Part shown: piece after piece, positions 12,001 through 15,000 of the stretch
Position numbering within the stretch: the first letter of the stretch is position 1
Layout of the letters: the number at the start of each line of letters is the position of its first letter
Virus record (IMG/VR): IMGVR_UViG_643348545_000013
Span: 1 to 57,943 of that record
Direction: 5' to 3' (one strand)
Origin: a virus
Lineage: Duplodnaviria; Heunggongvirae; Uroviricota; Caudoviricetes
DNA: 57,943 nt
Position numbers: made by a program

Positions 12001-15000
12001 GCATCCCTGATAGCAGACTCGACCATTTTGGATGCTAACAAGGCTCTTGAGCATGGCATAATTAATTCCATAAAAACTGCAAGGCTGGTATCCAATCAGG
12101 CAAACTGGTGGGTTGTTTGATGGGTAAATCATGATTGCTCCTTATAAAAAAACCACCTGACGGTGGGCATAATCCATTACTGCGAAAGTTTATTAATGGA
12201 AAGGAAACCGCCAAAATTGCCGACATTCCTGCGCAGTTCACACCCGCGCATGCACTTGCTGCATCTGTCCTTACGGATATCGGTGGTGGGTTTATCGAAC
12301 TCATCCGCCACAGCCCCGCCCGTGTAACCACACTCATCAGAGCGGTAAGTCCACATACAGGTATTCGCCAGCATAATGCGACCGGGAAACAGCGCCCCGT
12401 CCGTCTCGGTCGGTGTGGCCAGCACAAACGAGGCCGTCATGGCTGTGAGCTGCGACATCTGCTCCACCACCCAGCGGTCCGTCAGCTCCTGCTCCGGGTC
12501 AGCCTCCGGATTGCCTGCCACAAAATTCACCGCATCCAGAAAACGCGCATACACCCGGCGACGAACCACCGTGGCCCCCACCAGGCTCTGCAAATCCTCC
12601 GCCATCCCGGTGACCAGCCCGAACAGATTCGACACCGTCAGTGACGGGCGGGCACTGCTCCCTTTCCCGTTCATCTCAAAGCCGCTGCCGTCAATCGGGT
12701 ACGCCTCATACTTCCGCCCCTGCCAGGTGACCGGCTCCCCTTTTTCATTCAGCTCATTACAGAAAAAATACCGCTCACCGCCCTGTACCGTCAGGTCGAT
12801 TTCCCAGAGTACCACCCGCGGTGACTGCTCTGATTTAACCGACTCATTCAGGCTTTCTTCGTTGATCTCCTGCATAAACATCCACCCATAAAAAAAGGGG
12901 CGCAATGCGCCCCTGATAAAATAGTTCAATTAAAAAATCAAAAACGATGAAGGTAATAAAATGAAAATTAAATCAGCTAATAGCTGATCGCAGTGACCAG
13001 TGGAAATATAACTTCCACTGATACAGGCCATCTGTGAGGGCAGATGGCCTGTATTTATTTACCAGTAATCATCAGAACTGATAAGTCATACCAACAGCAA
13101 CGATATCATCCGTTGCAATGCCCGCATCCCTGGTAAACTTATTCTCATCAACCAGATTGATTTTATAATCAACATAGGTGGACATATTTTTATTGAAGTA
13201 ATATTTCGCACCTACGTCAACATACTTAACCAAATCCTGGTCACCATAGTTTTTACCACCTACAATGACATCCTGAGCACGAGACTGCAGGAATGCCAGA
13301 GATGGACGCAGACCGAAATCAAACTGATACTGCAGTACCGCTTCAAAGTTTTGCGCTTTATCTGCAACTCCTTTATCACCAAAGGTCGTCAGATTCTGAG
13401 TTTCGGAATATGTTGTAGCCAGGTAAAGGTTGTCAGCATCGTATTTTAGTCCGACTCCCCACATCTCAGCGTGTTTACCTTTTGCAACACTACCGGAATC
13501 AACAACGATCTGCTTTTCAGTCACTTTACCGGTTAAAGGATCAGTTTGTTCAATCGTCAGAGTACCATTCAGACCTTTTTCCTGATTATTGGTTCGGTCC
13601 GCATTAATATATGCGGCAACGATACCAAAACCTTCATATTCATAACTGGCTGAGAAACCGTGACCATCACCATTAGCTTTCCGGAGATCACCCCGATCAT
13701 TTTTACCCTGGTACTGTGCCGCAAAATTCAGGCCATCGACAAGCCCAAAGAAATCTGTATTACGATAGGTTAATACCCCGGAAGTACGGGCTGTCATGAA
13801 GTTATCGGTCTGGGTCCAGCCATCACCGCCAAACTCTGGTAATACGTCAGTATAAGAACCAACATCGTACGCAATACCATAGTTACGACCATAATCAATG
13901 GTGCCAAACTCACCAAACTTCAGACCTGCAAATGCAAGACGGGTTTTATTACCCGCAGCACCCTCTGATTCAGCTTTATTACCAGAGAACTGATATTCCC
14001 ACTGACCAAAACCAGTCAACTGGTCATTAATCTGAGTTTCACCTTTAAAGCCCAGACGTGCGTATGTCTTATCTCCATCATCCCCCTTATCACTGGAGAA
14101 ATAATGGAGTGCAGTTGCACGCCCATACACATCAAGTTTATTGCCATCTTTATTGTATACTTCTGCAGCCTGCGCCCCCGCTGCAAAAATTACAGCTGCT
14201 GCCACAGCTGAAAGTGCCACTGTCATTTTTTTCATGATTTAATCCTTATTTAAACTGAACTATTCATGCATAGAGATGTCATGAACAAAACTCAAAATAT
14301 TGTAAATTAAATTACGGGTTCAATTTTTATTTTGTTTCAAAATGTAAAAAAACAACTTTGATAGCACTTTATGTCAAGACAAAACAAAAATAACAAGCAA
14401 GCAAATTAATAAACGATGCTTTTAGGTTTTTTCTCAAAAACTTATCTTATTACCTGTTCCATCATACAACTGAAATCGCTGTACCTGGCGTTATCCGTAA
14501 TACTCCACTCCCGGCACACCACCCTGACCGTCCGGTTATGTTTCGGCGGTCGCCACAAAAAGGCACGGTAACCACCATGCCACGATAAAAATTCATCCAG
14601 CCAGCGCCGGGTCGCCTCATCCGTCACCCGGAACACTGCCTGAAATGTCTTCAGTCTGGCATTAAGTCCCGTCGGTCGGCGCTGTTCATAACCGTCACCA
14701 AACCGGACCCTCACCACCGACGGTTTCTCACTCACCTGCATCCCTTCACGCGGGACCAGATGCAGCGTTTTTATCTCAGCCACTCAGCATTCCTCCGTCT
14801 CGTCGCATGGACAGCATCACCGCCTGCACCCGCTGGTCAATCAGCTGAACAAGGCTGCCTGCCGCCTCCGGCCCTATCTGACCGTTGGCCCCGTCATTCT
14901 GAATGGCGATGTGGTAGACCGGGGAATACACCAGACCCGCACTCCCGTTCATCCTGCCCACGGCACGTACGCCCAGCGAGCCATCCGCCGCCCGGGTCAG

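Follow-up and report, generated by a model that had tools for sequence, protein, structure and literature searches.

A porin cassette at the junction of tail genes M and L

The window analysed here is a stretch of 57,943 nucleotides (nt) from a virus of the class Caudoviricetes (positions 1 to 57,943 of the IMG/VR record IMGVR_UViG_643348545_000013). Within it, a porin gene with flanking regions of its own lies between two tail genes, and the surroundings of this cassette form a complete lambdoid prophage. The cassette and both tail genes are on the minus strand, with M (14442..14783; Pfam Phage_min_tail, 98 bits) upstream and L (12177..12875; TIGR01600, 365 bits) downstream. From the stop codon of M to the start codon of L, the cassette spans ~1,566 bp (12876..14441) and has a GC content of 40.4%, compared with 54-58% in M and L. 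It is composed of an upstream regulatory region with the 5' untranslated region (UTR) (14236..14441), the porin coding sequence (13072..14235), and a structured 3'UTR of 196 nt (12876..13071) that ends in an intrinsic terminator. The first-pass annotation, made from the sequence alone, had placed a porin unit at 13021-14441. The porin does lie there, but it is on the minus strand and the unit extends to 12876, ~145 nt of 3'UTR and the terminator having been missed; the observation otherwise holds.

The interruption of the tail operon, which had also been claimed, is precise. In Stx-type lambdoid phages, e.g. phage 2851, the M and L reading frames overlap (CTGATGCAG), and the cassette sits exactly at that junction. 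In the window, the overlap is replaced by a Shine-Dalgarno (SD) sequence of L, GGGTGGA (12881..12887), and the end of M is recoded from EQVVN* to EQVIR*. In a RefSeq relative, L begins at the equivalent ATG. M and L overlap in 157 phage records that match both genes, and none of these has the insert; a search of 50,697 deposited phage records likewise gave no case of the order M-porin-L. The same order occurs in 92 of 5,426 complete Escherichia coli genomes (~1.7%), with Shiga toxin-producing isolates among them. Strains 2012EL-2448 and JNEC-KY203 have a porin identical to that of the window.

The slot is conserved within the family. In all 30 IMG/VR loci of the family, the porin stop codon lies 198-213 nt ahead of the tail-gene start. 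The L-start pattern was matched in 27 of these loci; in the remaining three, an ATGCAG start can be read from the sequence. The porin is intact in all 30 and in every genome inspected. Three diverged alleles (80-87% nucleotide identity) from RefSeq genomes occupy the same M/L slot without exception. Between the window and one related locus (L012), identity is 78.4% in M, 79.7% in the porin gene, 78.0% in the 3'UTR, and 74.6% in the upstream region; across the alleles, the cassette and neighbouring M have similar ranges (78-92% against 80-87%). The divergence of the cassette hence parallels that of M, which argues for one insertion event long ago, after which cassette and tail module diverged together. 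As a side observation, locus L012 (strain 2013C-3181) has an IS66 element between tail genes I and J (L012 1236..3652), so that prophage copy is probably defective; its porin is nevertheless annotated as an intact coding sequence.

The porin belongs to the Lc/NmpC/OmpD clade

The porin gene is an intact open reading frame (ORF) of 387 amino acids running from ATG to TGA. Its product matches Pfam PF00267 (Porin_1) with 465.3 bits against a cutoff of 23.7 and covers profile positions 1-337 of 337, which bears out the earlier description as a complete porin of the OmpC/OmpF family. It exceeds the cutoff of the OmpC subfamily model NCBIfam NF007841 by a narrow margin (496.7 vs 484) and stays below the NCBIfam equivalog cutoffs for OmpF (463 vs 583) and PhoE (467 vs 599). 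The chains of solved OmpC, OmpK36, PhoE, and OmpF structures match the porin with E values of 1e-128 to 1e-105, and these mature chains begin at its residue 24. Residues 1-23 (14167..14235), already taken for a signal peptide in the first pass, align with the sig_peptide annotated for Lc of phage PA-2. They end in AQA and are followed by AEVYNK, which corresponds by alignment to residue 1 of the crystallised mature chains. A cleavable N-terminal signal peptide and a mature start of the AE(V/I)YNKDGNK type are predicted on this basis. Loop L3 has the PEFGGD motif and the chain ends in YQF, both of them invariant across the porin alignment. The AlphaFold model of the porin, with a mean predicted local distance difference test score of 74.5, has 16 barrel strands and an extra β-hairpin at residues 225-244. 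No second porin gene was found in the window.

The alignment to OmpC, NmpC, and Lc that had been proposed as a check gives Lc and NmpC as the closest known relatives (68-73%, compared with 63% for OmpC). By alignment, the porin is 70-73% identical to PA-2 Lc, to 'OmpD' of phage ev207, and to NmpC of P7, and 61-63% identical to OmpC, OmpF, PhoE, and OmpN of K-12. By tblastn, the best phage porins reach 64-69%, all of them in other genome positions, and a porin above 80% identity to that of the window is absent from the phage records. A search of 5.8 billion proteins returned E. coli alleles that are 78-93% identical (360-387 amino acids) and one Citrobacter farmeri protein at 82%; below this family, there is an identity gap down to ~69%. 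Outside its own family, its closest matches, at 65-69% identity, come from lambdoid phages (Lc/NmpC/OmpD-type porins) and from the chromosomal porins that correspond to these. Judged by sequence identity, the porin thus falls in the Lc/NmpC/OmpD clade and is closer to it than to K-12 OmpC. In RefSeq, such genes are named 'porin OmpC', a label that can mislead porin typing in resistance studies. An origin from the core genome of another species was considered and rejected: with one genome per species (185,579 species), the top porin match is only 68% among the best 80 of more than 572 matches.

Sequence variation is concentrated in the extracellular loop L5 (residues ~220-250; 13486..13578), which is ~27 residues longer than in OmpC, OmpF, and Lc and differs in length among alleles. 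L5 is the sole stretch of the porin with a smoothed variability above 0.35, and L6 varies less. Over the stretch that includes L5 (residues 206-256), the rate of nonsynonymous substitution (dN) exceeds that of the barrel region (residues 24-205) by a factor of 4-7. Among the porin alleles compared, the ratio of dN to the synonymous rate (dS) is 0.06-0.13, with dS up to 1.2-1.4. This indicates that the porin is functional and has long been maintained. Together with the M-like divergence, a dN/dS of 0.06-0.13 at dS up to 1.4 characterizes the cassette as an old, selected resident of the tail operon.

The upstream region carries an OmpR-type box

The spacer between M and the porin start codon (14236..14441) has a GC content of 24.8%, so the AT-rich upstream region noticed in the first pass is real. 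In an alignment of five loci representing four distinct alleles, the spacer is 63-77% identical overall with several conserved blocks, and almost no variation occurs in the final ~45 nt ahead of the ATG. An OmpR-type box, TTTACATTTTGAAACA (14333..14348), is identical in 16 of 16 nt to a sequence upstream of K-12 ompC, which we take to be the OmpR C1 site. By chance, ~0.05 matches with up to two mismatches are expected within the window. The degenerate pattern TTTACWTTTKGWWRCA matches in 41 of 212 loci, always upstream of porin genes. The matches comprise K-12 ompC, K-12 ompF (presumably at the F1 position), four chromosomal porin genes of other species, and the cassettes of the family, in which the distance from box to ATG is always 113 nt.

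The allele alignment also shows a conserved TA(C/A)AAT hexamer, 28 nt downstream of the box; it reads TACAAT in the window (14299..14304) and TAAAAT in other alleles. It was picked by eye as a low-confidence candidate -10 element without a good -35, and the transcription start near 14292 that it would imply is a guess. Other promoter candidates in the spacer, such as TTGAGT-17-TATGCA, are not conserved between alleles and were dropped.

A long 3'UTR homologous to ipeX

The 3'UTR (12876..13071) is a diverged homologue of ipeX, the 3'UTR of lc/nmpC. Its minimum free energy of -72.5 kcal/mol lies far below that of shuffled sequences (z = -7.0). Starting from the porin stop codon, it is composed of three hairpins, a single-stranded core, and the terminator. 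We inspected the hairpins for covariation with RNAalifold on ten sequences, and found compensatory changes in nine pairs, eight of them within the three hairpins, with none broken inside the stems. Hairpin 1 (13021..13054) has a 14-bp stem in which three pairs are changed on both sides; only its terminal pair fails, in two of the ten sequences. Hairpin 2 (12998..13020; 10-bp stem) has four compensatory double changes and no broken pair. Hairpin 3 (12971..12989; 7-8-bp stem) has one compensatory pair, and its loop ranges from 3 to ~16 nt between alleles, MAFFT having misaligned it in alleles with short and long loops. The terminator (12890..12914) has an 8-bp stem with seven GC pairs, followed by U7, and ends 14 nt before the ATG of L. 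Its stem is identical in all alleles.

The single-stranded core, UUUAAUUUUCAUUUUAUUACCUUCAU (12947..12972), precedes the terminator and is antisense to the translation initiation regions of host ompC and ompF. Within it, TTATTACCTT is invariant in all eight distinct 3'UTR sequences of the family while neighbouring 3'UTR sequence diverges to ~78%. MicF and ipeX likewise contain the TATTACC of the core. Three hairpins, a single-stranded stretch, and a terminator follow one another in the same way in the 3'UTR of PA-2 lc (z = -8.9), which is identical to that of nmpC in the K-12 prophage DLP12, i.e. the ipeX region, and in the 3'UTR of P7 nmpC (z = -6.7). The core sequence is common to the window, PA-2 lc, and P7 nmpC. 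By contrast, none of 11 chromosomal ompD/nmpC-type genes (63-68% identical; from Citrobacter, Enterobacter, Salmonella, Lelliottia, Huaxiibacter, and Klebsiella) has a long structured 3'UTR, and only a terminator of ~45 nt is present there. The long 3'UTR therefore looks phage-specific and appears to travel with the porin.

The Rfam MicF model (RF00033) aligns over its full length with 12888..12978 on the minus strand, with 28.3 bits and E = 0.18. At the same place in one further allele (L027), it scores 26.6 bits; at the thresholds used, it has no match in the other seven loci searched, which include L025, L041, L044, PA-2 lc, and P7. With both scores far from the gathering score of 79, membership of the 3'UTR in the MicF family was rejected. 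As an observation on P7 alone, its nmpC 3'UTR (L010 4112..4298) aligns with the full-length Rfam GcvB model at 30.5 bits (E = 0.0054; gathering score 42), which is probably an architectural likeness only.

The core matches the start regions of ompC and ompF

Compared with the reverse complement of K-12 ompC from the SD sequence through codon 4, the core of the window is identical at 21 of 24 positions with one gap. Compared with that of ompF around the SD sequence and the AUG, it is identical at 23 of 25 positions with one 2-nt gap. Related elements have antisense matches at somewhat different segments: the 3'UTR of L012 matches ompC from -32 to +12, that of P7 matches the segment of ompC around the AUG (17/18), and the match of PA-2 ipeX lies in the ompC leader (about -32 to -2).

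Predictions with the whole 3'UTR gave meaningless long duplexes, and the pairing was therefore evaluated with the seed only, against shuffled seeds and against 8,000 random 60-mers. The duplex of the window seed with ompF has an energy of -24.0 kcal/mol (z = -4.4; top 0.16%) and that with ompC an energy of -21.5 kcal/mol (z = -5.3; top 0.35%); in both cases, none of 300 shuffles reaches the observed value. The MicF-ompF duplex, used as control, has -27.4 kcal/mol and falls in the top 0.075%. The pairing of the core with ompC and ompF is hence comparable in energy and specificity with the real MicF-ompF pair. The start region of the cassette's own porin gives -10.5 kcal/mol (z = +0.5), which is not significant. 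When 12 start regions were compared, ompC and ompF took the top two places for three of the four phage elements, and the first and third for the window allele. The duplexes with ompA, phoE, ompN, and the start regions of the phage porins themselves are weak. Repression of ompC and ompF by the 3'UTR through such pairing is a computed prediction.

A proposed function in lysogenic conversion

We interpret the cassette as an autonomous moron for lysogenic conversion that replaces the porins of the host, namely a diverged copy of the lc-ipeX module placed in the M/L slot, and give this interpretation a probability of roughly 0.6. A role in lysogenic conversion or exclusion had been suggested in the first pass. 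The ipeX-like 3'UTR, which had escaped notice there, strengthens that suggestion and makes such a role the most plausible one, while the accompanying idea of a pairing with J was not supported (see below).

In a lysogen, host RNA polymerase would start at the AT-rich promoter of the cassette, probably in an OmpR-dependent manner, transcribe the porin gene and the 196-nt 3'UTR, and stop at the terminator ahead of L. As the terminator lies upstream of L, the tail genes would stay silent. The porin would be exported via its Sec signal peptide and form a 16-strand general-diffusion channel with a long and variable L5 in the outer membrane. The exposed stretch of the 3'UTR would pair with the ribosome-binding and start regions of host ompC and ompF and spare those of the cassette, the UUAUUACCUUCAU core being the element predicted to mediate this repression. 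It may act within the mRNA or after processing. Translation of ompC and ompF would then be repressed, as has been reported for ipeX: PMC8065619 and PMC7177473 state that IpeX lowers OmpC and OmpF, and the former credits this decrease to papers of 1975 and 2006. The net result would be a replacement of host porins by a phage porin with a different surface, and possible consequences are an altered sensitivity to porin-dependent phages and colicins, an altered antigenicity, and perhaps an altered permeability. During lytic growth, the Q-modified polymerase would pass the terminator, and L would be translated from its own SD sequence.

Several observations weigh against this interpretation. Scanning the spacer (14236..14441) for consensus promoters gave no sigma-70 site, so the -10 element and the start site are guesses; the blank scan and the poor -35 would fit an activator-dependent promoter. 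The MicF score is far under threshold, and the match is absent in several alleles, lc, and P7, which leaves a resemblance only. The seed of the window allele also forms a duplex of -23.3 kcal/mol with the lamB leader (12931..12955 vs L215 about 1939..1960). Given this value and the ease with which AU-rich sequences pair, duplex energies alone are not specific. Finally, the cassette is co-oriented with the late operon and must therefore be transcribed late too, which makes a role in the lytic cycle possible. Concerning the lamB duplex itself, the energies for the other alleles, ipeX, and P7 are only -8 to -14 kcal/mol; it joins the U-rich part of the core with an A-rich leader and may be a chance pairing of low complexity.

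A broader proposal, which we regard as tentative and put at somewhat under even odds, is that ipeX-type 3'UTRs are MicF-like trans-acting antisense RNAs evolved by phages, and that each forms with its porin a portable unit found in at least three slots, i.e. between Q and S, in the P1-type genome, and at the M-L tail junction. Each 3'UTR would nearly copy the reverse complement of the start region of ompC and/or ompF, with its own porin being immune. If true, this would provide a simple pairing mechanism for IpeX, which is described in reviews as unexplained by complementarity. As an antisense match is present in every ipeX-type 3'UTR compared, such a mechanism would be simply testable by seed and compensatory mutations.

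Nutrients and many antibiotics enter the cell mainly through porins, which also serve many phages and colicins as receptors and are dominant antigens of the cell surface. Gating, receptors, and antigens would all change at once with a prophage that brings in a porin and silences those of the host.

No sign of a pairing between the porin and the J tip

The first-pass annotation had also linked the porin to a diverged receptor-binding end of the tail tip protein J (4968..8498, minus strand), which lies outside the cassette. The divergence was correctly recognized. Residues 1-1066 of J are 67% identical to lambda J by BLASTP, whereas no significant BLASTP alignment with lambda J was obtained beyond residue ~1066, and the last ~150 residues (4971..5420) align with the lambda tip over only 22 residues. 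The C-terminus of J is 97.6-99.6% identical to that of phages PhiR12_1 to PhiR12_5 (PV340549-54), whose hosts are K-12 MG1655 and E. coli C. The literature on the PhiR12 phages yielded nothing relevant on the receptor of the shared tip. The next full-length match is Salmonella phage Fels-1, at 44%.

It could be that J adsorbs to a host porin, OmpC or OmpF, and that the phage porin replaces this receptor, so that porin and J form a functional pair for self-exclusion. PA-2 itself uses OmpC, and PA-2 lysogens lose OmpC. The C-terminal ~110-150 residues of J have no similarity to the LamB-binding end of lambda J, and the 3'UTR is predicted to silence both ompC and ompF. The linkage of the two genes speaks otherwise. 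We compared 11 related loci and the window, all with both genes present. The identical porin allele (100% at the amino acid level) occurs with three unrelated J tips, i.e. the window type and two lambda-like ones that are 42-44% identical to the tip of lambda, and one J type occurs with three porin alleles; there is hence no sign of a pair, and the proposed functional link fails this direct test. Moreover, PhiR12_1 to PhiR12_5 have the J tip but lack this porin family, given that porins above 80% identity are absent from the phage records, and the divergence of the cassette tracks M rather than J. We therefore consider a dedicated pair unlikely. An exclusion effect of the porin-replacement moron, if any, need not be aimed at the window phage itself.

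Other explanations of the cassette

Slightly less probable than a J-porin pair, in our view, is that the cassette encodes a late product for the lytic cycle, with the porin or its RNA remodelling the envelope as the cell dies; a removal of receptors could, for instance, prevent loss of progeny on debris, or lysis or nutrient supply could be helped. The cassette is indeed in the late operon and in the same orientation, and Q-antiterminated transcription crosses it toward L, K, I, and J. Since lc/nmpC-type porin genes oppose the late genes in the records examined, this orientation is a real difference. However, the strong terminator and the host-type porin box make sense only for independent expression, and the region of the cassette's own promoter is conserved and under constraint. 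In addition, porin biogenesis and the turnover of OmpC and OmpF are slow relative to a late period of minutes.

A little further down in likelihood comes an extra porin that confers a benefit in permeability or against bile or antibiotics and has an ordinary 3'UTR for mRNA stabilization and termination, the match to ompC and ompF being an AU-rich accident or the result of shared ancestry with porin leaders. The sub-threshold MicF match and the comparable duplex with the unrelated lamB leader are in line with this explanation, and PMC12197685 describes the mechanism of ipeX as not simple pairing. It does not readily account for the invariance of TTATTACCTT while the adjoining 3'UTR diverges to ~78%, nor for the antisense matches to ompC and ompF that four independently diverged phage 3'UTRs keep, even at somewhat different segments. 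It is also at odds with the failure of all 300 shuffles to reach the observed energies and with the ~45-nt terminators of the 11 chromosomal ompD/nmpC-type relatives. That the cassette is an inert passenger, i.e. a recently captured fragment of host ompC with no function as the RefSeq name 'porin OmpC' might suggest, is excluded by the selection analysis for practical purposes (dN/dS of 0.06-0.13 over a synonymous divergence above 1) and is further contradicted by the intact porin in 30/30 IMG/VR loci and all inspected genomes, and by the top match of 68% with one genome per species, among the best 80 of more than 572 matches.

Other features of the prophage

A second insert of low GC content (39-45%) lies in the tail operon, with the tail assembly gene T on one side and the tape-measure gene H on the other, and holds an ORF of 137 amino acids (18082..18495, minus strand) with a lipoprotein-type signal (MKKFMLLIFSVSFFLTGC). 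This ORF matches PHROG 6823 of unknown function and has no match in Pfam or NCBIfam. A terminator-like GC hairpin with a T-run follows at about 18040..18065, just before the start of H. The insert is absent in the otherwise similar prophage L001, where T is directly followed by H.

An accessory block (10108..12120) is located between tail genes L and K. It encodes a ClpP-like protein (11584..12120, plus strand) that scores far below the family cutoffs, an Arc-like protein (11312..11584, plus strand), a second Arc/YlcI-like ORF (11085..11348, minus strand), and a Bro-N/P22 antirepressor (10108..11022, minus strand). Phage 2851 has an Ant/Arc block in the same L-K slot, without the ClpP-like gene.

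A 162-bp unit repeated 3.4 times with 96% matches (21957..22501) encodes a 54-residue protein repeat (IPVPRDGRDYDPDVLQKAVNDAV...). The repeat-bearing ORF of 407 amino acids (21503..22726, minus strand) overlaps the end of a 454-residue portal-like ORF by ATGA. The equivalent stretch in phage 2851 and L001 is one 'portal protein' of ~860 residues, which is marked as frameshifted in L001. Downstream of the side tail fibre genes, an ORF of 396 amino acids (832..2022, minus strand) has a relative in L001 annotated as 'YadA C-terminal domain-containing protein' (an anchor of the adhesin type). The next ORF, of 156 amino acids (274..744, minus strand), belongs to PHROG 6585, also of unknown function.

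Comparison with known systems

Phage porins and ipeX as such are already known. In the searchable literature, which covered few subscription journals, we found no report of the M/L junction as an insertion slot, of a phage porin in a tail operon or co-oriented with late genes, of this distinct porin clade with its long variable L5, or of a consistent antisense match between ipeX-type 3'UTRs and the start regions of ompC and ompF.

The cassette resembles lambdoid morons such as lom and bor of lambda and the Ant/Arc block between L and K of Stx phages. Like them, it is inserted between conserved late genes, is present or absent among close relatives, and has a foreign base composition and its own terminator; the precise presence or absence between conserved flanks, the low GC content, and the terminator are all traits of a moron. 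These morons carry other cargo than a porin with its 3'UTR. Among porins that are not phage-borne, the closest to that of the cassette (65-68% identity) are the chromosomal OmpD/NmpC-type proteins of Salmonella, Citrobacter, and Enterobacter, which differ from it in having a core-genome context and a short L5.

MicF and the 3'UTR of the window share a UUAUUACC(G/U)UCAU core that pairs with the SD region of ompF and is followed by an AU-rich stretch and a terminator. MicF, however, is a separate gene that is transcribed divergently from chromosomal ompC, whereas the element of the window is the 3'UTR of a porin mRNA and has three extra hairpins at its 5' side. NmpC of P7, a P1-like phage-plasmid, belongs to the same porin clade (64-70% identity), and its gene has the same 3'UTR layout with a TTTAAC-TTCATGTTATTTATTACC core. 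The gene is flanked by odaA and ssb, with lyz nearby, in a genome of the P1 type, in contrast to the lambdoid tail operon that hosts the cassette.

The closest known counterparts are lc of PA-2 and nmpC of DLP12. Their products are of the same OmpD/NmpC clade, have a signal peptide of the same type, and are 67.9% (tblastn) to 72% (alignment) identical to the porin of the cassette. Upstream, PA-2 lc and the cassette both have a TTACAT(C/T)TTGAAA box and a similar end of the 5'UTR, (A/G)TGACATC...AATAGTTCA. The 3'UTRs share the three hairpins, the TATTACC in the single-stranded core, and the GGGGCG...CGCCCC terminator. The differences lie in sequence, target segment, and position. The porin has diverged from Lc by ~30% and has an L5 that is ~27 residues longer. 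The antisense core of the cassette corresponds to ompC from the SD sequence through codon 4 and to the SD region of ompF, whereas that of PA-2 corresponds to the ompC leader from -32 to -2. The analogy to PA-2 lc drawn in the first pass is thus apt for the kind of gene and not for its position: in the lambdoid records examined, lc/nmpC genes lie between Q and the lysis genes and oppose them (Rz-ORF2-lc in J02580; Q-S in ev207 and DLP12), and the cassette, placed between M and L, is oriented like the late operon. It therefore has the phage-borne porin and the long structured 3'UTR of the lc/nmpC-ipeX module at another location, and shows that modules of this type are more widespread and mobile than the two classical examples suggest.

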